Shown: positions 3,218-28,081 of the stretch, one piece after another
How the letters are laid out: each line of letters starts with the position of its first letter
Numbering within the stretch: position 1 is the first letter of the stretch
Virus record (IMG/VR): IMGVR_UViG_2734482782_000001
Coordinates: 1-28,372 of that record
Direction: 5' to 3' (one strand)
DNA from: a virus
Taxonomy: Duplodnaviria > Heunggongvirae > Uroviricota > Caudoviricetes
Length of the DNA stretch: 28,372 nt
The notes under the pieces: generated by a model
Databases searched by the model: none
What the model was told of the DNA's origin: nothing
The model's input: only the letters and a program-made list of their open reading frames with translations
Made by a program: the position numbers and the translations under genes

Positions 3218-3613
3218 TTAAACAGCTTCGTCAGTCTTCATTTTTTCCCACTGAGAAAAAATAGTCTTAACCTCTAAGAGAGATTGCTGTGCCATTGCTT
3301 TATCAATTGCACAGCTAGTGAGGTCATAATCAGCTTCATTTCGAGCCAATCTCTGTTGCTCAAGTTTGTAAGCCATGGATTTTAGGCTTAATGGATCATA
3401 TGGCTCCAGTTTGTTTTCACTCTTATTTTTAAGATAAGAGATAAGGCTGGAATGATGATCCTTCGTATAAGCAGGAAGACTGGTCAGATTCTCTTTTATT
3501 TCATGGTAAAGCGCATAATATGCTCGCGAAATAGTATTACGATAACCAACCTCAGAATCTTCCGCAAAGCAACGCTCCGCAGAAGATAAAAATTCAGAGC
3601 TAGTTATAGGCAT
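3218..3613 (-). CDS. Hypothetical cargo protein, 131 aa, HEPN-like motifs
   Basis: ATG start with AAGGGTG RBS; overlaps the upstream 256-aa gene by 14 nt. About 35% GC by eye. Contains R30-x6-H37 (RAYYALYH) and R91-N-x3-Y96 (RNEADY), reminiscent of the HEPN Rx4-6H signature. Not confirmed by HMM. Confidence 0.7.
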   Translation of the reverse strand: MPITSSEFLSSAERCFAEDSEVGYRNTISRAYYALYHEIKENLTSLPAYTKDHHSSLISYLKNKSENKLEPYDPLSLKSMAYKLEQQRLARNEADYDLTSCAIDKAMAQQSLLEVKTIFSQWEKMKTDEAV

Positions 3614-4370
3614 ATTTACACCCTTTCAAGCTATTTCTTTCAACGGAAAAACGTGCAATAAGATTGCAATCATCCAGTAAATCGATTGAACAAATTTCAT
3701 CTGCAAGTCGCATATTCATTGCAACCACCTGCTCAGGGGATGCATTGACTACCTCAACCAGATAAGTCCCACCAGATGCACCGTTGATGTCAGCACGATA
3801 TTCAGTTGGCGGGAATTCAGCCATAACTCTATGAACAGCAAGAGCAACTTGCATGTATTGTTCTGAAGAGCAACCTGACTTTTTGTATGCTTCATCCATA
3901 TCGTGAATTACCTCCTGCAAGAAGGCTTCTGCGTCATCCCTATGTTCTTCTTGGGATAACATTTTGCAATGACGTCCAAAATATTCTACGCATTTTGATA
4001 GTTTCCCTACCAAATATGCAACGCCACCAGCCCTGTAAGTAAACCACTTGGTTGGATACTTATCAGCTAAAGAATAGATGTAGTAGTCCGATTTTTCGAG
4101 TAGAGAAAAACGCTCAAGCAGCTTACAAAAAATCCGCGCAAAGTTAACGTCAGCATGTGGGAGGATAGCTTCAAGCATTTCTATCCCGACACTCACCTCA
4201 CCTTTTGCAATATGAGCCAAAGCTACAAGCGTGTCAGCAGGCGGAGTATGCTTAGAGCCATATTCCGAAACCACCTCTCGAAAGGTCCAAATATCAAGAG
4301 GTTGACCACTATTGATTATCTTAACCAACTGGTCAAAACGCTCTTCCGCTTTCAGTTTTGGTCTTGCCAC
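3600..4370 (-). CDS. Hypothetical cargo protein, 256 aa, no recognisable motifs
   Basis: Long ORF in the AT-rich island. The first start codon after the in-frame upstream stop is GTG at 4370 with a weak SD, so the start is uncertain. No P-loop or nucleotidyltransferase motif seen. Confidence 0.65.
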   Translation of the reverse strand: MARPKLKAEERFDQLVKIINSGQPLDIWTFREVVSEYGSKHTPPADTLVALAHIAKGEVSVGIEMLEAILPHADVNFARIFCKLLERFSLLEKSDYYIYSLADKYPTKWFTYRAGGVAYLVGKLSKCVEYFGRHCKMLSQEEHRDDAEAFLQEVIHDMDEAYKKSGCSSEQYMQVALAVHRVMAEFPPTEYRADINGASGGTYLVEVVNASPEQVVAMNMRLADEICSIDLLDDCNLIARFSVERNSLKGCKYAYN

Positions 4371-18404: not shown

Positions 18405-20036
18405 TCACGCTCCGGCCAGTTTGGCCCAATTATCAAGAGAGGAATCCATCGGCGCGTAGTTAATCATCACGGCGTCTGCGAGGTTCGGCGATTTTGTGCC
18501 TTCCGGCTGTTTATCCACGAGGATTTTACCGACGGCATTTTTCGACCACGTAGGCTGTGAAAGCTCCATCAGCAGGCGGTCAATATTTTCTATCTCGCTG
18601 CTTATCGAAATGATTTCGTCGGGGTTATAGTCCATCCCGTTCAGCGCCCGGAAGGTGTTCCGAAACAGCTTGCGGAGATGCCACCAGCTCTGCGCTTTCG
18701 CGTTCGCGAAGAAGTCTTTATTCAGGCGCGCCGCTTTACCGTTATCACCAGGAACGGCTTCATCTTCCGGATCGAATACGCTACCGCTACCACGGAAAGG
18801 CGTAGCTGTGATTGTTCCCCGGCCTTCAGCCTGCCTGAGCTCGTTTATCACGCGAGCATCGCCACGTGCACCAGCACCTAGACCGTCCTCATCGAAACGG
18901 AACTCATCCAGACCGTAATCGTCACAGTACCCAAACGATTTAACGACAGAAGCGTATATGTCGCTGCCAATGCCAGACCATTCGTGAACGTTCTGCAGAA
19001 GGAAGCCATAGCGGCAAGAAAAGCCGTTTTTGTCTTTCCCTTCGTCTGCTATATCCATTGCGCCGAGGCGCTGGCCGCTGGGCTGAATACCCAGTTTGAT
19101 ATGCGCGTCGACGGCAGCCTGCACCCATTCAGAAGGAATGAGAATCCCCTCTGTGGATGCGCTGTAGTTCAGGTCCAGTTCCTGAGCAACGATAATCGGA
19201 TCATCAATTTTCAGACATTCGTTGCGGTACCACTCATCATCCTTGCGCGGGTCGCTGCGCCAGTGGAACGTAAACACCGGGATATTTCCGCTGTGGCGCT
19301 TACGGGCAAACGGGTTATTCATGCCGTTGACGGATGAGAGGTCTATACGGCAGCGGGTCGTCTGAGAGAGCGCAGCATCGATGAGTAATGGCCGTTTGAG
19401 AAATGCCGACTCATCCACGAAATAAAGCGTGGTACGGTCACCACGGCCAATGTTATCGCCAGCCTCTCCCTTAATGACCGCGCCCGTTTCCGGGAACTCC
19501 ACGCGCATGTAAGGGGCATGTTTTTTGTCACTCCATGAACCGCGAAACTCAACCGGCAGCAGCTCGACAAACTTCCGTGCCTTCCAGAACAGCGCTTTCG
19601 GATCGCCGGTGCTATCGACATATTCCTCTTTACGGGAACCGAACCCGATCACCATTTCTTTGTTGAACAGGCAAAGCGAACAGGCCAGACCGATAGAGGT
19701 CCAGCTCAGCCCCATTTCGCGGCTTTTTTCTGTCAGTCCATGCTCAAGACTGGCGCGCCTGTCCATGATCCAGTTAATCCATTCCTCCTGGCGGGGGAAC
19801 AGCAAAAACGGGATGGTGGCAGGCAGGCCATAATCGAGGTTACGCGGGTCCGTCGTCATACCCCAGTCGATGATGAACTGGGCCGGGTTAGTGCGGTAAA
19901 ACTCACGGAGTGCCGGAAGCATTACAGGCGCTTTCCTGATCCGCTCCAGCCTCTCCATTCTCCACTCAAACACGGCGGTATAGTCCGGTTTGCGGAAGTC
20001 AAAGGGGAACGGGATCGGCACAGAAAAATTCCTCAA
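18405..20036 (-). CDS. Terminase large subunit
   Basis: 543-aa ORF between the TerS-like gene and portal; contains a Walker-B-like LYFVDESAF. Start ambiguous: TTG 20036 (track), GTG 20021 with GAGGAA RBS, or ATG 19958. Confidence 0.7.
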
Positions 20037-20046
20037 AAACGCCCCG

Positions 20047-20078
20047 ATTTAACATAATGGTCGTTACCCGCACTGGCG
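20047..20078 (-). repeat. Conserved 32-bp intergenic element, copy B (between terS and terL)
   Basis: Plus ATTTAACATAATGGTCGTTACCCGCACTGGCG; 27/32 identical to copy A. Confidence 0.6.
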
Positions 20079-20219
20079 CAACAGCACCCATCACGCAAAC
20101 GGCGTGAAGCCTCTGTTTTGAACAGAAAAGTGGTCAAATCGAGATGAATAAAACGTGCATAAAACGGGTCAAAAAGTGCATAGCGTTTTTACGGTTCGAA
20201 ACGCCTGTTTTTGCAATTT

Positions 20220-20822
20220 TCAGCCCAGGTATTTTTTGTAGATATCTGCTGCTTCCTGCGGGGTCAGGTTCGCCGCGTCGGCTTTGGCTGTCTCGTCCAT
20301 ATTGTTGAACGATTCGAAAATCTTCGGTGCTTCCAGCTCCATAAGCAGGGTTGCCGGAACTTTTACCCCCTCAGCCTCAAGCAGCTGCGCCGCCTCCAGC
20401 GCGGAGTATTTCCCGGCCACCTTATGTTTCATCACCTCGCGAAGCACATCACGCTGACGTTCTTCCTCGCTATAGACGCTGGTACCAAGACCGAGCACCT
20501 TTGAGAAAACAGCAATATCGTTGTGCGTGGGCAGCACATCTTCAATCGTGGTTTTCACACCATCCGGCGATGTGGTGACAACTTTCCGTTTACGAACGTC
20601 CAGGCTCTTACCGGCGACGCGGTTTATTTTCTCTCTGAGAGCTTCGCGAGCCTCAGTGAAAGCGCGCTCAAACTCGATATTCTCTTTACGCCAGCGACGG
20701 ATCGTCGTCTCGTCCACACCTAAGCGCTGAGCAACCATCCGATTGCTGATTTTGCTACGGGCTAATGCCATGTCCATAACGATACCGACGTAGGCTTTTC
20801 TGAAGCTTTTTTTAGGAGCCAT
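20220..20822 (-). CDS. Terminase small subunit (HTH DNA-binding)
   Basis: 200-aa ORF, ATG start, immediately upstream of TerL. N-terminal HTH-like SNRMVAQRLGVDETTIRRWR. Confidence 0.6.
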   Translation of the reverse strand: MAPKKSFRKAYVGIVMDMALARSKISNRMVAQRLGVDETTIRRWRKENIEFERAFTEAREALREKINRVAGKSLDVRKRKVVTTSPDGVKTTIEDVLPTHNDIAVFSKVLGLGTSVYSEEERQRDVLREVMKHKVAGKYSALEAAQLLEAEGVKVPATLLMELEAPKIFESFNNMDETAKADAANLTPQEAADIYKKYLG

Positions 20823-20880
20823 ACTTCCGCCTAAGTCAATGTGATTATTTTTTGTTCAAAATCCAATTTCTCCGATCCGG

Positions 20881-20974
20881 GTGCGGCGTATCACACGGTA
20901 AATTCTGGCGTGCAGGCCGCGTCCTCTCTGGTGCCAAGTGCGGCATATCAGAGGGGGTAAAAATGCGGCATATC
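20881..20974. repeat. Three direct repeats (G/A)TGCGGC(G/A)TATC between int and terS
   Basis: Copies at about 20881-20893, 20938-20950 and 20963-20974. An 8-bp inverted repeat ATAGTGGA-N13-TCCACTAT follows at about 21031-21059. Confidence 0.6.
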
Positions 20975-21066
20975 CTTTTTTTCGGGAAAACTGCGATTTG
21001 ATGCCCGGAGGCCGCGCAGAATGGGGAGATAGTGGATCGCCCTAATATTTCCACTATGTGGATAAC

Positions 21067-22071
21067 TCAGTCTAAATCCATCTCCACCACTTCACCGAAC
21101 AGGTGACCGTAAACGTCCATTGTGGTTTTGATGTTCGAATGCCCAATAAGTCGGGAAACCTTCAGAATATCGACGCCTTTGTTTGCCAGGCGAGATACAG
21201 CAAAGTGGCGAAGATGATGGAATCGTTTAATGCCATAGTCGTTCAGGGTTCTGACGAGAACGCCCTGAGTGCCGTAGCTGGTAGCAAGGCATGCGCCGGT
21301 AAACTGGTTGCAGATAAGAGGCTCAGAGGTACCGAGTTTACTTTTATCCAGCAACGCGAAAAGCTCACGCGGCATCCGTACCCGGCGCTCCACTCCTCTT
21401 TTCAGCCCCTCATGTATAACGCCGTCAACAACATGCCCCCGGATGTCGATCCAGTCGGCTGACACGTCGTTATAAGTAACAGCCAGAGCCTCACCGATGC
21501 GCAGGCCACAAATCCCGAGCCAGCACGCGATTCGCTCACGAACTGGCGCGTTATTCAGTAGCTCCCTGACCGATGATGATGGCGGTATGGTGATGGGTCG
21601 ACGCTTCCGGCGCGCGGGACGGTCAACAGGGTTAAAAGTGATGAGCCGTTTTTCCACCAGCAGGAAGAAAGCCGAACGAATCCAGCGATGGCAGCCGGTG
21701 CGAACCGAATCAACGATATCGCGATGGCTGATATGGAGAATATTTTTTTCCAGTATCGGCCCGTCTACAGCGAGAAGATCGTGACGGCATTTCGTATATG
21801 ACGACAGCCGTATGATATTTTTTTCCAGCTTGCCGGCCTGATACCCCAGATAAAACAGAATTAACTTTCGGAAAGTCCAGGAATGGTCTATTCCGGTCCA
21901 GCTGGCAGTTCGACAATCCAGCTCGATATTCTGTTTTTGCCAGAAAAGATGTGCGGCATCATCAATATTCTTAAAAATGCGGCGGCGTCCATGACCGGAT
22001 TTTTCATCCTTCCAGTGGACGTAATATTTTGATTGTCCATTGGCATCAGTGGATTCTTTTATCGAAGCCAT
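21067..22071 (-). CDS. int: Tyrosine-type site-specific recombinase / integrase
   Basis: The track starts at TTG 22080; the ATG at 22071 has a GAGGA RBS 9 nt upstream. C-terminal HLRHFAVSRL and GHSNIKTTMDVYGHL match the H-x-x-R and catalytic Tyr pattern of the tyrosine recombinase family. Confidence 0.8.
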   Translation of the reverse strand: MASIKESTDANGQSKYYVHWKDEKSGHGRRRIFKNIDDAAHLFWQKQNIELDCRTASWTGIDHSWTFRKLILFYLGYQAGKLEKNIIRLSSYTKCRHDLLAVDGPILEKNILHISHRDIVDSVRTGCHRWIRSAFFLLVEKRLITFNPVDRPARRKRRPITIPPSSSVRELLNNAPVRERIACWLGICGLRIGEALAVTYNDVSADWIDIRGHVVDGVIHEGLKRGVERRVRMPRELFALLDKSKLGTSEPLICNQFTGACLATSYGTQGVLVRTLNDYGIKRFHHLRHFAVSRLANKGVDILKVSRLIGHSNIKTTMDVYGHLFGEVVEMDLD

Positions 22072-22250
22072 GCTGAACAATCCTCACTCAAAAAACATTA
22101 TCAAAGCCACTCGCCGAATGGATTTGATAATGCTAATAAAAATGTCTCGGAAGCTATCCTTCTGTGCTCCCAATCAAGCTTTGCCGTTGCACCCTCATCA
22201 TATGAAAAAGTTCATGATACATTATGCTTTTATCAACTGAGGTGATCGCG

Positions 22251-22502
22251 ATGTCTGAACTCGAAAGTAGAGTTAATGAACTTGAAACAGAAAATGAAGA
22301 ATTGAAGTTAGAAATTCAAGCTTTGCGAATTGCAGTGGTAACTATCTCTTCTGTCGTAAACGAGGCTGTCGGCAAAACGGCTGGCTTAATGGGTAACACC
22401 ATTGAGGAAAGTTTGATTTTTGATGAAGACTTAGACCAAGATGAAGAGCGCTTCAACAAAATGAAATCAAAATTAGTTCACCTTTTAGGCAAAAAAGAGT
22501 AG
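22251..22502 (+). CDS. Small acidic coiled-coil protein, function unknown
   Basis: Only convincing plus-strand gene. ATG at 22251 with GAGGTGA RBS (the track's upstream ATG at 22224 has no SD). 83 aa, glutamate-rich heptad pattern (ELESRVNELETENEELKLEIQALR). AT-rich; convergent with the lysis operon. Confidence 0.6.
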   Translation: MSELESRVNELETENEELKLEIQALRIAVVTISSVVNEAVGKTAGLMGNTIEESLIFDEDLDQDEERFNKMKSKLVHLLGKKE

Positions 22503-22533
22503 TAACCACCTTTCCCTCTTGTTTTTAATAAAA

Positions 22534-22558
22534 TCGTCGCCAGCAGTGACTGGCGGCG
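22534..22558 (-). terminator. Terminator-like hairpin between convergent Rz and the plus-strand small gene
   Basis: 9-bp stem CGTCGCCAG/CTGGCGGCG with one mismatch; on the minus transcript it is followed by AUUUUAUUAAAAA. Confidence 0.45.
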
Positions 22559-22572
22559 AAATTGACTTATGT

Positions 22573-23118
22573 TTATTTCCTTTCATCCTCTATTTGACGT
22601 ATTCCAGCCAGCTGATTATTCGCTTTTTCGATGGCGGCCAGTAGCGGCTTGATCCAAAGAACAGCCTGGCAATACGTCAGCGAGCTGGTGGAAGCGGCAC
22701 TATCACCGGCTGCGTCAGCGCTCCCGGAATCGGTGTGCATTGCGCTGGCACGTAGACGGTGCGTGTATTCGAGCAGCCCACCAGCGACATCAGCAGGAAC
22801 AGGCAGATCACAGGTTTTTTCACGGCGGAGAATCTCCCGGTACTCCATAACAGTTTTATCGGAGCTGGCATCAATCAATGAGTTAAGTCGGCTGGCGTTT
22901 TCGGCCACCTGGTTAAACCGGTTGAAGTTGAAAGCCTGAGCAGCGATAACCGTCCCCTGCAGGTTGTTGTCACTGCGCAGAACGTCATTATCACTCTTCA
23001 GCGTAGCAACGTCAGAGCGGCTGTTTGCAAGCAGGACACACAGCCCGGCGACTACCGCAATGACGGCAACCAGCAGTATCAGACGCCATGAGGCTTTGAT
23101 ATCTGTAAAGGTGATCAT
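22573..23118 (-). CDS. Rz-like inner-membrane spanin (i-spanin)
   Basis: 181-aa ORF, ATG overlapping the endolysin stop (ATGA). N-terminal TM helix WRLILLVAVIAVVAGLCVLLA followed by a periplasmic helical domain. Last gene of the lysis cassette. Confidence 0.7.
   Translation of the reverse strand: MITFTDIKASWRLILLVAVIAVVAGLCVLLANSRSDVATLKSDNDVLRSDNNLQGTVIAAQAFNFNRFNQVAENASRLNSLIDASSDKTVMEYREILRREKTCDLPVPADVAGGLLEYTHRLRASAMHTDSGSADAAGDSAASTSSLTYCQAVLWIKPLLAAIEKANNQLAGIRQIEDERK
22677..22871 (-). CDS. Rz1-like outer-membrane lipoprotein spanin (o-spanin), embedded in Rz in another frame
   Basis: ORF entirely inside Rz. Lipobox L-V-G-C preceded by a hydrophobic stretch (KKPVICLFLLMSLVGC); proline-rich mature part (PAQCTPIPGALTQPVIVPLPPAR). 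Start codon uncertain. Confidence 0.55.
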   Translation of the reverse strand: MPAPIKLLWSTGRFSAVKKPVICLFLLMSLVGCSNTRTVYVPAQCTPIPGALTQPVIVPLPPAR

Positions 23119-24007: not shown

Positions 24008-24559
24008 TTACGGCAGAGCATTTGATAGAGCCTCTTCGAGGCCGAGACGCCGGAAGCACTTAAGCGCTGTCTGGCGGCTGCTGTTGATGATATTTACCTT
24101 ACCGGCCAGCGCTCTGGCAGTATTGGCAAACTCACCGCGCCATCGCGTGACACTCTCTGCTGTAGGGTTATCCAGCCCGACGTGATCACCATGCCAGTGA
24201 CTGCCGCAATTAATGGAGCAGTCAAACCCTAACAGGATGATGTTTTTCGCCCCCAGGCTGGCAGCAAAGAGAATCGAGCGCTGCCCGGAGTTGAAGGCCC
24301 ACCGGGTATCTGTATCAAACAGATTTAGCCCATAGCGTTTATGAGCCCGGTAATTACAGGTCCAGCGAGAGGCGGAGGACGGTAGAACATCGATGTTTGC
24401 ATCCCACCAGCGCAGATCACCCGCGTAAATGTATTCACAATCAGGCACGGCTTGCCAGGTGGAGTTAACAGCAATAACCGGCAGCCCCGATCCGGAGCTC
24501 AGTTCGCAATCTGATTTATTGAGAGACGGGCCGGATGCACAAATGATGAATGTATTCAT
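24008..24559 (-). CDS. Hypothetical cargo protein with GPSL Rossmann-like motif (DUF115 / GT42 glycosyltransferase-like)
   Basis: 183 aa, ATG start. N-terminal IICASGPSL, central ILFAASLGAKNIILLGFD, and HWHGDH; these resemble motifs of CstII-type sialyltransferases / MAF-DUF115 proteins as I recall them. Lies between the tR'-like terminator and the holin. Confidence 0.55.
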   Translation of the reverse strand: MNTFIICASGPSLNKSDCELSSGSGLPVIAVNSTWQAVPDCEYIYAGDLRWWDANIDVLPSSASRWTCNYRAHKRYGLNLFDTDTRWAFNSGQRSILFAASLGAKNIILLGFDCSINCGSHWHGDHVGLDNPTAESVTRWRGEFANTARALAGKVNIINSSRQTALKCFRRLGLEEALSNALP

Positions 24560-24690: not shown

Positions 24691-25494
24691 CTAAATTTTG
24701 TTCACATCATCACGAAAGCTCGTTGCGTCCTGAAACGCCGAGTCTGCTTTTTGTTCTTCTCTGTAGCAGACGTCGACAAGCCCCTCCAGAAACGGTTTCC
24801 AGTTACGGGTCCACGTTCTGACGTGCAGATCCGGGACTCGCTTCAGTATCGCTTTATAGGCTGCAGTAGACGGCACCCCAGAAAATCCATTTCCGCTGCA
24901 GCGCTCGCAGGTTTTAAACACCGGCGCGCCGCGCTCGCTTGTGGCTTTGCGGTCGAGCACCTCACCTTTGCCACCGCAACGGCATCGAGCCAGTAGCTCA
25001 CCTTTACCGTTACATGCCGCGCATGTACGCTTGACCAGTTCGTGCTTGATTTTCGGCGGTACGATTTCCATTCCGTCAGAGTTGAATATTCCAGGATATT
25101 TGATCACATCCTCATACTGAGAGGTTAATCCGCTGCCGCTGCAGCTGTGACACGTCACGCTGGTTTCCGCTGAACGGGAGTATTCTGCAAAGGCGAATTG
25201 TGCGAGCACCAGCATGCACCAGCCAAACTCTCCTGCAGCTGCTTTACGTACATTCCTGGGCGCTGATTCCATTGCATGACGCGCCAGAGCCTGTACAGCC
25301 AACTGCTCATCGCTTTTGCTGATCCCGGTCTTACCAAAGAATGCAGCCAGACCAAACCGCGCGCGGCTGCTGGTGGTACCAATGGCCGCCATAACATCGG
25401 TGCCAGTGATACGATCTGGAGAGGTTCCTTTCACGTCGTCGCTGATGTGCATCCCCTGAGGGCTGAAGTGTTTAAGTGAAGCTTCCAGTTTCAT
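24691..25494 (-). CDS. Putative late-gene antiterminator (Q-like) with DnaJ-type zinc finger
   Basis: 267 aa, ATG overlapping the primase stop (ATGA). Four CxxCxGxG-type motifs (CHSCSGSG, CAACNGKG, CRCGGKG, CERCSGNG). Sits immediately upstream of a promoter/terminator unit and the lysis genes. Confidence 0.5.
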   Translation of the reverse strand: MKLEASLKHFSPQGMHISDDVKGTSPDRITGTDVMAAIGTTSSRARFGLAAFFGKTGISKSDEQLAVQALARHAMESAPRNVRKAAAGEFGWCMLVLAQFAFAEYSRSAETSVTCHSCSGSGLTSQYEDVIKYPGIFNSDGMEIVPPKIKHELVKRTCAACNGKGELLARCRCGGKGEVLDRKATSERGAPVFKTCERCSGNGFSGVPSTAAYKAILKRVPDLHVRTWTRNWKPFLEGLVDVCYREEQKADSAFQDATSFRDDVNKI

Positions 25495-26468
25495 GCGGCC
25501 ACCTGCTGCTTTTTATAGAATACCAACTCACGAACCTGATCGCCGTTCATGAGCATGTCGTTGAAGTCCCCGTTATCCGGGTAGTAGATGCTGATTTTTT
25601 CCAGGTCATTTTTTGCCAGTAAGTTGGCATGGGCACATTCCGTGGCCGCAGCCAATCCGGTGGCGCTGTTTACGTCTCGATCTGCGAAAATAATCAAATT
25701 CTTCACACCTGCAGGAACTCGGAATTTCTTCATGAATCCGCTGGTCATGGTGGCCCAGGTGTTAACGTTGTACAGCTGCTTGCAGGAAAGAGCCGTTTCG
25801 ATACCCTCGGCAATTCCGAGGGTCGTCGCTACCGGGAACATTCGAATAGCGACGGAACGGGCATGATCCAGATAGCTTTCGTCCTGAAGAGATTTCTGCC
25901 GCTTCGCTCCGGAAGAATCCCTTAGTTGGGCTTTCTGATTGCCGTCCAGTAAGGTTCTGTGCAGATAGCAAAGCTCGCCTTTGTCGTCAGTTGCGAGTGA
26001 ATACAGACACTGGTAAACCTTACCGCCGTAGCGTTGTTTATCATTGAACTTCACTGCCTCTTGTGGGAGCTGATAAATTCCCCTGGCCTGCAGATAATCC
26101 GCTCCGGTAGTTCCTTTCAGGTTGACCAGTTTCGAAAATTTGGACAGAACCCGATCACGGGCGCTTACTGCATCTGAAGTGCGCGGGAACGCTTCGCGGG
26201 TAAAGTTATTACCAATCAGCTGGTCTATTTCCCTGCAAATTTCATTGAATGGCTTCCCTTGTGTCAGAGTGACAAGCTTCATTCCGTCACCGCTGCCGCA
26301 GGTACAGATCCATGTTCCCCGGCCGTCCCGGTCATCAATACGCAGCTTTCCCCGCGCACCACATACCGGACATTCACCTTTAAAATGATTTCTGGCATTA
26401 ATGGGAGGTAACCCGAAGTGCTCAAAAATCATTGCCCATTGACCTTTTGCCGCTTCTGCCGTTTTCAT
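25491..26468 (-). CDS. DNA primase (zinc-ribbon plus Toprim domain)
   Basis: 325 aa, ATG overlapping the helicase stop. N-terminal Cys cluster CPVCG...CTCG. Toprim signatures IAEGIETALS (conserved Glu) and IIFADRDVN (DxD). Confidence 0.75.
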   Translation of the reverse strand: MKTAEAAKGQWAMIFEHFGLPPINARNHFKGECPVCGARGKLRIDDRDGRGTWICTCGSGDGMKLVTLTQGKPFNEICREIDQLIGNNFTREAFPRTSDAVSARDRVLSKFSKLVNLKGTTGADYLQARGIYQLPQEAVKFNDKQRYGGKVYQCLYSLATDDKGELCYLHRTLLDGNQKAQLRDSSGAKRQKSLQDESYLDHARSVAIRMFPVATTLGIAEGIETALSCKQLYNVNTWATMTSGFMKKFRVPAGVKNLIIFADRDVNSATGLAAATECAHANLLAKNDLEKISIYYPDNGDFNDMLMNGDQVRELVFYKKQQVAA

Positions 26469-28081
26469 GCTCTTTTTCCTAACTGCTGTTTGATATCGCT
26501 AATCGCTTTCTGTGCCTGCTGTACTGAGGATGGGGCTGCCATGCTTGTTGCCTCCTGCAGGCGCTTGGCCTTCTCCTGCCCTTTCGCATACGCAATCAAT
26601 TTGTGTCGGATGAAATTAGAGACGGTTGGCGTGATCTCCATCGGGAAATCGCTTAACCCGTTAGGCCACTCGTCAAACCGTTCGCGAAAGGTATTTGCGC
26701 ACCAGCCATCGCTGACGGGCTTTTTCCCCTGCGATACGCGCTGACGCTGATAGAATTTGATCTGACTCCACCAGGCCTGTTTCTCTGCCTTCGTGGGCTG
26801 ATGCTGGTTTTTACCCAGCTTTTTGAGTTTGCGGCCGGTGTCGGTGTCGACGTCCTCACCGCCCAGCGGCTTATGCCCACATTTCGGGCATACATAGACG
26901 CCAGCTGGCTTCATGTAATGGCATTGAGAGCATTCGTGTGGCAGCTTTTCGGCCCGTTCCTCAGCTGCGCGGCGCGCGCTTTCCTCCATGCCGTCAGACT
27001 TACCGGGAAGATCGTCGTACTCGATTGAATCCGGATAACCCAAACGGTGCACGGTACCGCTATGATCGAAGATGAGGCAGGACTCTTTACCCGGTGCGGT
27101 GCGCAGGCCACGCCCGAGCGCCTGCAGCCAGCGAATTTCGCTTTTTGTTGGCCTGGCGTAGATGATGCAACGAACGTCACTATCGAAGCCGGCCACCAGA
27201 ACGCCCACACTAACGATAATTTTCGTTGCACCGGTTTCAAAGCGGTGAATGATGGTCTGGCGTTCATCCACTGGAGTGTCGGCGGTCATGATCTCAGCGT
27301 TAACACCCGCAAGGTTAAACTGGATTGTCAGGTAATTGGCGTGGGCTACGTTGACGCAGAAAGCGATGGTAGGAAGATCCCGGCCATTCTCCAGCCAGTT
27401 CTGTACGATGTCGCCCACCAGCGTAGAGCCGCACATGATTTCAGCCAGCTGCGTTTCGTTGTAATCGCTGCCGTACTCAAGCGATGCTTTGGTTTTAACA
27501 CCTTTCAGATCCGGCTTAGTTGGCGCGTAAAATTCGTATTTACTCAGATCGCCACGCTGGATTAACTCGCCGATGGTGGTCGGCTTAATCAGTCGGTCAT
27601 AGTATTTGCCCAGGAACGGGGAAAACGGAGTACCCGACAGGCCAATCACCTTTACGCCTTTGCCGCGCAGACGTTCGATATCCTTCAGGATGCGTTTTTT
27701 ACGCAGGTGTGCTTCGTCGATAATCAGCAGATCGATATTTTCAGGAAAAACACGACGAATAAGCGTGTCGGCGCTGGCAATCTGAATTTTCCGGTCCGGA
27801 TCGTAGTTCGGGTGATCTGCCCAGATATAACCGATTTCATCCCCCGGTAACCCATACTCCACGAACCGATTAGCCGTCTGACCGATCAGGATGGTGTACG
27901 GTGCACAGAACAGGACGCGCATACCACGGCTGACAAACCCGGCGACGATGAAGGCGGCCAAACCCGTTTTACCGCTACCGGTTGGCGAGTACACCATGAA
28001 GGTGTCGTTTGCCTTCCAGTCACGGCGCAACATGTTTAGCGCTCGTTCCTGTGCAAAATTCGGCGTGATCGTCAGCTCCAT
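26465..28081 (-). CDS. SF2 DEAD/DEAH-box replicative helicase with C-terminal zinc ribbon
   Basis: 538 aa, ATG with GGGGG SD. Walker A SPTGSGKT, motif II LIIDEAH, motif III SGT, motif VI QALGRGLR, and C-terminal CSQC...CPKCGH. Confidence 0.85.
   Translation of the reverse strand: MELTITPNFAQERALNMLRRDWKANDTFMVYSPTGSGKTGLAAFIVAGFVSRGMRVLFCAPYTILIGQTANRFVEYGLPGDEIGYIWADHPNYDPDRKIQIASADTLIRRVFPENIDLLIIDEAHLRKKRILKDIERLRGKGVKVIGLSGTPFSPFLGKYYDRLIKPTTIGELIQRGDLSKYEFYAPTKPDLKGVKTKASLEYGSDYNETQLAEIMCGSTLVGDIVQNWLENGRDLPTIAFCVNVAHANYLTIQFNLAGVNAEIMTADTPVDERQTIIHRFETGATKIIVSVGVLVAGFDSDVRCIIYARPTKSEIRWLQALGRGLRTAPGKESCLIFDHSGTVHRLGYPDSIEYDDLPGKSDGMEESARRAAEERAEKLPHECSQCHYMKPAGVYVCPKCGHKPLGGEDVDTDTGRKLKKLGKNQHQPTKAEKQAWWSQIKFYQRQRVSQGKKPVSDGWCANTFRERFDEWPNGLSDFPMEITPTVSNFIRHKLIAYAKGQEKAKRLQEATSMAAPSSVQQAQKAISDIKQQLGKRA

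Follow-up and report, generated by a model that had tools for sequence, protein, structure and literature searches.

The 28,372-bp stretch of DNA analysed here (the window; complete contig JUCB01000038.1 of GCA_000797605.1) carries ~70% of the genome of a temperate, myovirus-like enterobacterial phage. Within it, the gene for a 334-aa tyrosine recombinase (Rec; 21067–22071, minus strand) lies between the lysis cassette and terS, the gene for the small terminase subunit. Judged from the near-identical relatives of this phage, Rec is a second recombinase and not the integrase. Moreover, comparison across relatives indicates that Rec, the spacer that follows it and the N-terminal domain of TerS behave as one swappable cassette of ~1.9 kb.

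Rec and the phage integrase

The preliminary description of this DNA had offered two explanations for a recombinase gene at this position, namely a secondary recombinase or an integrase whose phage attachment site (attP) lies beside the packaging site. The former is borne out by Escherichia coli prophages in which Rec, TerS, the large terminase subunit (TerL), the portal protein and the helicase are 97–99% identical to those of the window, as these prophages possess a separate, canonical integrase gene at the prophage/host junction. The integrase is a protein of 390 aa with Arm-DNA-bind_2, SAM-like and PF00589 domains and is 23% identical to Rec. Its gene adjoins the early genes, ~13 kb from Rec, with an unannotated small open reading frame (ORF) beside it. 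The complete genome of phage EKP1 (Rec 77% identical) leads to the same conclusion, as Rec is again placed between the lysis region and terS and a separate integrase gene is found, with a PrtN-like gene, after the tail-fibre genes. The immunity/early-left end of the window's own phage is outside the contig, and the presence of an integrase there is predicted from the near-identical relatives.

The alternative, that attP beside the packaging site serves for integration, was not supported. Among the ~120 loci examined, Rec was found at a prophage/host junction in none and was internal in every integrated copy, and a search of 5,426 E. coli genomes for the spacer between Rec and terS yielded no match at any other place. 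Related phages with this as their standard arrangement, and with characterized att sites, had been named as evidence that would count against the observation; the arrangement is indeed standard in the relatives (see below), but no characterized att sites were found. The host labels of some of the records used here are doubtful. Those deposited as 'Elizabethkingia phage EKP1' (OM284015.1) and as an assembly of 'Chryseobacterium sp. 18061' (CACSKA010000001.1) are of an enterobacterial-type lineage, and their labels look questionable.

Predicted activity and fold of Rec

The presence of a tyrosine recombinase gene between Rz and terS, co-oriented with the late genes, was confirmed by matches to PF00589 (2.6e-15; 57 bits against a cut-off of 27) and to phrog_1 (1.6e-29). 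The start codon, which had been placed at a TTG at 22080, was revised; translation almost certainly begins at the ATG at 22071, which gives a product of 334 aa (MASIKE...); the deposited gene call and every homologue agree on this start. The catalytic residues R191, K224, H285-x-x-R288, H311 and Y321 are invariant in 26 Rec homologues, down to 36% identity. The ratio of non-synonymous to synonymous substitution rates (dN/dS) is 0.03–0.15 among chromosomal copies, and both purifying selection and intact catalytic residues persist in chromosomal copies that have diverged to 59–80% identity. Overall, Rec is predicted to be catalytically intact and is evidently under purifying selection. In E. coli DX6 the gene (21066–22069 of that locus) is split by a frameshift, as are the portal, lysozyme, baseplate and other genes, and these frameshifts could represent either sequencing errors or a decaying prophage.

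In order to probe the architecture of the protein, we examined an AlphaFold2 model of Rec (predicted local distance difference test score 88.9). The model contains an N-terminal three-stranded sheet and helix (residues 3–52), followed by core-binding and catalytic domains. Foldseek gave a probability of 1.0 to Tn1549 Int, lambda Int, XerA, IntI4, XerH and Cre. The closest PDB matches were Tn1549 Int and full-length lambda Int, with alignments to the latter ~360 columns long, and matches to Xer proteins, IntI4 and Cre were weaker. The fold of Rec is thus modelled as lambda-Int/Tn1549-Int-like. None of the Pfam arm-domain models matched Rec even at E ≤ 10, and its N-terminal 172 residues were recognized by no Pfam model. 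Likewise, no arm-type sites could be assigned to the N-terminal domain, the sole repeated motif of the spacer belonging to TerS.

Other classes of tyrosine recombinase were considered and rejected. Scores against the Xer-type resolvase models fell far short of their cut-offs (XerA 41.6 bits against 220, XerC 28.3 against 335 and XerD 25.8 against 330). The same was true of the integron integrase model (TIGR02249, 36 bits against 265), and the cargo found on either side of the hairpin upstream of Rec (see below) is without repeated sites. Rec is too small to be of the protelomerase type, and no telomerase-like protein was present among the best 50 structural matches listed. Membership of the Cre family was also rejected, as Cre chains were matched by Foldseek only at E ~1e-4 with a template modelling score of ~0.38, behind lambda Int and Tn1549 Int, and there was no match at the sequence level. 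Finally, a PADLOC search for defence systems gave no match for Rec, for the small ORF upstream of it, for the 183-aa protein encoded between the Q antiterminator and holin genes or for the DUF6236 cargo, and only a trivial helix-turn-helix (HTH) match for TerS.

Conservation of the Rec–spacer–TerS arrangement

To assess how widely the arrangement is shared, we compared loci from several databases. A homologous TerS follows Rec in all 12 of the close loci from GTDB species representatives and in 73 of 76 IMG/VR loci, the remaining three having a different HTH protein of 174 aa. In 67 of the 76 IMG/VR loci, the TerS start lies 246–255 bp beyond the last codon of Rec. In PLSDB, Rec and TerS were each found in 28 records, of which 27 are common to both, and the genes are adjacent wherever both positions were compared. 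The order lysis genes, Rec, spacer (~250 bp) and TerS is evidently the standard arrangement for a large clade.

More distant homologues (25–47% identical) are encoded by phage-plasmids, including the 34-kb Yersinia pestis plasmids, elements of Providencia and Erwinia tracheiphila, a Serratia contig, many Arsenophonus plasmids and Sodalis phiSG1. In the phage-plasmids that were inspected, Rec is immediately upstream of a homologous TerS and of terL. Genes for holin, lysozyme and a spanin-like protein precede Rec in Y. pestis, Arsenophonus, Erwinia and Sodalis but not in Serratia and Providencia. The wider Rec family is concentrated on non-mobilizable phage-plasmids of 28–48 kb with Rep3/RepL, ParA and toxin–antitoxin genes, and the cassette appears to have been inherited from, or to be shared with, a clade of enterobacterial phage-plasmids.

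These phage-plasmid relatives have, in addition to Rec, a highly conserved serine recombinase of ~200 aa (Resolvase and HTH_7 domains) encoded beside terL (L087, 11224–11826; L092, 9985–10566; L095, 8176–8781; L096, 7283–7873; L097, 8243–8848). It is missing from the integrative relatives and from the window. A separate group of loci (L090, L019 and L167–L169) belongs to an element located beside smpB, in which the Rec homologue is 45% identical and the gene after it encodes an unrelated HTH protein of 174 aa. This element carries integrase, D5-type primase and baseplate/tail-fibre genes without head genes, and may be a degraded prophage or satellite-like. The record of Yersinia phage YP3 (PV092592.1; Rec 95% identical), in which Rec abuts terL at 19.7 kb, was considered as a counter-example and set aside as scrambled. 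Segments of it are duplicated and out of order with respect to the window, with terS and the spacer at 34.4–35.4 kb, and the record is unfit for synteny comparison.

Rec follows the N-terminal domain of TerS and not TerL

DNA homologous to terL was found in 46 E. coli genomes, of which only five have Rec–terS. Three of the 41 Rec-less genomes were inspected individually (Sx181-0-1, LHM10-1 and LR-33). Their prophages encode a TerL 80–97% identical to that of the window and the same portal protein, and one of them also shares Rz (90%) and the hairpin that precedes Rec in the window. All three lack Rec and have an unrelated TerS, either a 190-aa 'terminase small subunit' or a DUF2280 protein. 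The alternative TerS proteins have only the last ~16–40 residues in common with TerS of the window (NLTPQEAADIYKKYLG; ..LTPQEAA-YKK-LG), as seen when 7024–7596 of L179 and 6643–7116 of L180 are compared with 20220–20270 of the window. This shared C-terminal tail is presumably the part that binds TerL.

The converse is observed in the phage-plasmids. Here, Rec is present at 30–47% identity, the N-terminal ~160 residues of the TerS encoded beside it are 35–63% identical to those of the window protein and the C-termini are different, and no TerL of the window type was detectable in Rec-bearing phage-plasmids (tblastn, E ≤ 1e-3). TerS would therefore seem to be bipartite, its N-terminal HTH part going with Rec and the packaging initiation site (pac) and its C-terminal ~20–40 aa going with TerL. 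Sharing of the tail provides a natural example of TerS modularity, in which the DNA-binding domain is exchanged while the TerL-docking peptide is retained. The terS–terL intergenic region is ~520 bp in the closest relatives (11850–12370 in L007/L008) and ~200 bp in the window (20022–20219), and this gap constitutes a second small variable spot within the packaging module.

A two-part cis region between Rec and terS

The spacer of 244 bp (20823–21066, minus strand) appears as a cis region in two parts. In the part nearer terS there are three direct repeats of TGCGGCRTATC, assigned below to TerS (20882–20892, 20939–20949 and 20964–20974, plus strand). These are the only three occurrences in the window, where 0.08 would be expected. 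Across 83 loci, two variants of the repeat are found, reading (A/C)(T/C)GCCGCA and YTCCGCA on the coding strand of Rec and TerS. The variants covary with the sequence of the TerS HTH, ETTIRRWRKEN accompanying one in 48 of 48 cases and EATIRNWRKEH the other in 34 of 34 (82/82 in total). Because a given Rec (99% identical) is found about equally often with one TerS/pac type as with the other, the covariation assigns the repeats to TerS as its recognition sites and this part of the spacer to the pac region. The same observation suggests that exchange takes place inside the spacer. Similarity in the left ~95 nt of the spacer rises with the identity of Rec (r = 0.94), whereas that in the right part goes with TerS (r = 0.76) but not with Rec (r = 0.31). 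It should be noted that the correlation of the left part with Rec could stem from physical linkage alone.

The Rec-linked and TerS-linked halves meet at an invariant joint, GGCATnAAATCGCAGTTTT (20987–21005, minus strand), on either side of which similarity to different relatives breaks. The sequence AAATCGCAGTT is constant in the spacers of the close family (Rec 55% or more identical), save for single-base variants. The joint resembles the TerS repeat unit; it may be a fourth TerS site, a cut site or the crossover point.

The Rec-linked half contains a sequence that we consider to be a candidate core site for Rec, ATAGTGGAAAT-ATTAGGG-CGATCCACTAT (11-7-11; 21029–21057, minus strand), located 10–38 nt past the Rec stop codon. 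Among 25 distinct sequences, two blocks, RTGGAAAT and GATCCACTATCTCCCC, are near-invariant (mean column entropy 0.12 and 0.13) around a 7-nt centre that is variable (0.71). In a subgroup with 55–59% identical Rec, both flanking elements are replaced by those of the TGGCTATA type and the spacing is unchanged. The candidate core occurs once in the window, once in a full E. coli prophage (L006) and once in the whole EKP1 genome, with up to three mismatches allowed, and it lies 60–170 bp from the TerS repeats. Conserved arms, a variable centre and a single copy would fit a site that recombines with itself, and would not fit an inversion switch or a fixed chromosomal partner. An ORF spanning much of the spacer (20845–21054, 69 aa) was rejected as coding, since it has no family match and no deposited call and relatives differ in it by indels whose lengths would break the frame. 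Dam motifs (GATC) are seen repeatedly in the spacers, with no enrichment established.

The late operon and the variable DNA upstream of Rec

The backbone genes of the window are all on the minus strand, in the order helicase (26465–28081), toprim primase (25491–26468), Q antiterminator (24691–25494), a gene of 183 aa (24008–24559), holin, lysozyme and Rz (22573–23118), followed by Rec, the spacer, TerS and TerL. The Rz spanin gene (phrog_214 at 3.8e-56), with Rz1 embedded, is the last of the lysis cassette. TerS (20220–20822, 200 aa) gave weak matches to HTH and terS profiles. TerL (18405–20021) is of 538 aa according to the deposited gene call and matches phrog_2 at 8.6e-28. Downstream of terL, on the same strand, are genes for a DUF1073 portal, a Mu-F-like protein and then head, sheath, tube, tape-measure and baseplate proteins. 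The portal, the Mu-F-like protein and the relatives of TerL suggest that this phage uses headful packaging.

The DNA from Rz to terS contains no recognizable sigma-70-like promoter, although there may be a weak or non-canonical one, and a promoter dedicated to Rec was rejected on this basis. Given that the genes from Q to the tail are co-oriented, it seems likely that the structural genes are reached by transcription through Rec. We infer that Rec belongs to a Q-dependent late operon and is transcribed together with the terminase genes. The 183-aa gene between Q and holin matches phrog_4603 ('alpha-2,3-sialyltransferase', 3e-51) and is weakly MptE-like. It is kept in many relatives, including some without Rec. 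Within the baseplate module of the window, two ORFs of 131 and 256 aa (3218–4370, minus strand) have a GC content of 0.41–0.44 against ~0.55 for the backbone. Neither Pfam nor PADLOC gave a match for them; they look like a moron or accessory cassette, and homologous hypothetical genes occupy the equivalent place in the E. coli prophage L006.

Hairpins and AT-rich DNA had been reported to flank Rec, and both were confirmed; there are two terminator-like hairpins, and the GC content is 0.38 at 22001–22500 against ~0.55 elsewhere. The longer hairpin (22090–22132, minus strand), directly upstream of Rec, has an 18-bp stem that is 89% complementary (arms 22096–22113 and 22115–22132) and a T6 tract. 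In L007–L011 it is conserved and has undergone compensatory changes. Because it also follows Rz in the Rec-less prophage L179, it belongs to the backbone and not to the Rec cassette, and it constitutes an intrinsic-terminator-like element where the lysis cassette ends. The second hairpin (22538–22555), after Rz, lies within an AT-rich insertion of 442 bp (22133–22574), in place of which the closest relatives, L007 and L008, have 17 bp. Different cargo is found at the position of the insertion in L006 and L009–L012, and the distance from Rz to Rec ranges from 65 to 1414 bp in the 76 IMG/VR loci. No repeats flank the cargo, which can lie before or after the backbone hairpin, and Rec-less prophages also carry cargo at this position.

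The insertion encodes a small coiled-coil protein on the plus strand (22251–22502, alternative start 22224), probably of 83 aa and with a good ribosome-binding site. The description of this divergent neighbour of Rec as a small acidic gene was correct as regards its composition (19 D/E against 10 K/R). The gene is not tied to Rec, however, being missing from L007 and L008. It matches phrog_16546, of unknown function, and gave no PADLOC match and no tblastn match among phages. The variability of the cargo between Rz and Rec across relatives marks it as a moron and not a partner of Rec. That no HTH excisionase is evident beside Rec also proved correct, as Rec is bordered by Rz and variable cargo on one side and by TerS, the sole HTH protein nearby, on the other.

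Possible functions of Rec

We tentatively favour the view, which we regard as quite possible, that Cre/lox-like recombination takes place beside pac in the one inherited cassette that Rec, the ~95 bp past its stop codon, the pac repeats and the TerS N-terminal domain form. Rec would recombine two copies of a single site beside pac, located either on two phage molecules or on both terminally repeated ends of one packaged genome. As a result, injected terminally redundant DNA would be closed into a circle, monomers and multimers would be interconverted, or both. Such a site would be useful only near pac, so that recombinase, site, pac and TerS would travel together. In phage P1, loxP is located a few kb from pac, within the terminal redundancy of the first headfuls, and Cre both cyclizes terminally redundant DNA and resolves plasmid dimers. 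Recombination of phage DNA with phage DNA would fit the single conserved site with its lineage-variable centre, the lack of a chromosomal partner, the proximity to pac and the phage-plasmid ancestry. A scan of ten annotated early-left ORFs of EKP1 recognized no recombinase of the Erf, RecT or Red-beta type, which, together with the frequent exchange within the spacer, is consistent with a Cre/lox-like function. The DNA on which Rec acts, the reaction and its timing are all surmised from these features. The proposal predicts that Rec would protect 21029–21057 and that TerS would protect the TGCGGCRTATC repeats and AAATCGCAG.

Several points weigh against this proposal. The activity of Rec, its use of the site and the product are all predicted ones. 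Against shuffled sequences, the inverted repeat within the candidate core did not reach significance (99/300). When subfamilies were searched, an inverted repeat stood out in the Y. pestis group (13-7-13, at the equivalent position; 2/300 shuffles) and was marginal in the smpB-linked group (29/300), and the remaining subfamilies showed no difference from shuffles. Packaging usually runs from pac towards terS/terL, and the candidate site, lying upstream of the TerS repeats, would be within the redundancy only if the cut were made still further upstream. The position of Rec in the late operon would suit a late function better than circularization after injection, the protein has a lambda-Int-like N-terminal domain and is not of the Cre family, and headful packaging is only suggested. 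Furthermore, circularization and multimer control would be needed with any type of TerS, and the tie to one TerS family is explained only via the proximity to pac.

An alternative that would account for that tie is that Rec is a packaging cofactor, on which this TerS family depends at pac and which binds, and perhaps nicks or remodels, the DNA for terminase initiation. Action at pac would explain why Rec is swapped with the TerS DNA-binding domain and the pac repeats independently of TerL. In keeping with this, the presence of Rec follows the TerS N-terminal domain and pac type and not TerL, the head genes, the lysis genes or the lifestyle; the spacer length is tight (246–255 bp in 67/76 loci); the gene stands directly ahead of terS in the late operon with no sigma-70-like promoter from Rz to terS; and the conserved Rec-linked element abuts the TerS sites. 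A tyrosine recombinase would thus have been recruited into the packaging machinery, either to build the initiation complex or to generate a DNA form that TerS recognizes. We know of no precedent for this, however, and the full catalytic set of a recombinase is kept, which is more than binding or nicking needs. In addition, the same TerL occurs with other TerS proteins without any Rec, and adjacency alone could hold the genes together. A role as cofactor, and recruitment of the enzyme into packaging, both seem to us somewhat unlikely. A function restricted to multimer resolution, in which Rec monomerizes phage-plasmids and is a leftover linked to terS in integrative prophages, is suggested by the concentration of the wider family on phage-plasmids of 28–48 kb and by the single copy of the candidate site. 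We consider it unlikely, given the strong purifying selection and intact catalytic residues in chromosomal copies. Moreover, the serine recombinase beside terL could do this job in phage-plasmids, yet it is this enzyme that the integrative forms have lost while keeping Rec, and the tie to TerS type is left unexplained.

The predicted three-domain architecture of Rec, similar to that of lambda Int and including an arm-binding-like N-terminal domain, and the location of conserved elements adjoining the gene, the usual place of attP, would be expected of an alternative integrase using an attP in the spacer and a second chromosomal integration site. This is nevertheless improbable, as Rec is flanked by lysis genes and terS at every examined locus and never by host DNA, and the 5,426 E. 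coli genomes contain no match to the spacer elsewhere. The centre of the candidate core differs among close relatives, which is hard to square with a fixed chromosomal partner, no directionality factor is encoded nearby and the relatives already hold a canonical integrase elsewhere. The variable cargo directly upstream of Rec might instead point to an inversion or deletion switch, to cassette capture or to a defence moron, all of which appear very improbable. For a switch, no second copy of the conserved element exists in the window, the full prophage or the full phage genome, and long-range inverted repeats around Rec are weak (70–80% complementary). As regards capture, the cargo lacks flanking repeats, is not confined to one side of the backbone hairpin and is present at this position in Rec-less prophages too, and Rec stays far short of the cut-offs of the integron-integrase and Xer models. 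Neither Rec nor the small ORF matched a defence system in PADLOC.

Implications and comparison with known systems

Although the enzyme class is well known, a conserved and swappable cassette of Rec, site, pac and TerS, uncoupled from TerL, is apparently undescribed. One practical consequence concerns annotation, since the terminase-adjacent 'integrase' of this widespread group of enterobacterial prophages and phage-plasmids is not the enzyme of integration, and predictions of prophage boundaries and lifestyle that are keyed on Rec will be wrong. Natural controls are at hand in phages that share TerL and the head module but differ in having the cassette, and they make the role of the recombinase in circularization or packaging directly testable. 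Likewise, the combination of two TerS HTH types with two repeat types provides a ready pac-specificity pair for studies of TerS recognition. A role in the initiation of packaging would place Rec in a new class of accessory factors for terminase, and a Cre-like role would make it part of a recombinase/site pair with a lambda-Int fold and possible use as a tool.

Full-text literature searches found no description of a recombinase–TerS module or of the function of Rec, the nearest parallel found being gp50 of the Bacillus 'Tyroviruses'. This is an extra tyrosine recombinase encoded in the late region, for which an inverted-repeat site was proposed just downstream, and its authors, to whom the function was unknown, remarked on its puzzling location (PMC9703825). 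Like Rec, gp50 is a conserved additional tyrosine recombinase inside the late/structural region (PMC9703825), but in the 160-kb Bacillus phages its gene is placed between those for the neck and the tape measure and not beside terS, and the likeness drawn here is one of position. With the integrases of lambda and of Tn916/Tn1549, Rec shares the predicted fold, the domain order and the R-K-H-R-H-Y residues, and the 11-7-11 layout of its candidate core, with a centre of 7 nt, is that of lambda-family core sites. It differs from lambda-type integrases in being internal to prophages that use another integrase, and no attB, set of arm sites or excisionase has been identified for it.

A positional likeness can also be drawn with the HNH endonuclease and terminase genes of HK97-like phages, where the gene for an accessory DNA enzyme is fixed directly upstream of terS in the late operon and passed on together with those for packaging. 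These enzymes are of another class, however, and whereas cos cleavage is an established function of the HNH proteins, we know of nothing comparable for a tyrosine recombinase. The likeness to Cre/loxP of P1, drawn from textbook knowledge, is both functional and positional, in that each system would comprise a second, non-integrative tyrosine recombinase with a single site beside its gene and near pac. Unlike Cre, Rec is not of the Cre family and has an arm-binding-like N-terminal domain, and its site and reaction are deduced ones. Rec also lies less than 250 bp from terS, where the corresponding distance in P1 is kilobases, and would be co-transcribed with the late genes.

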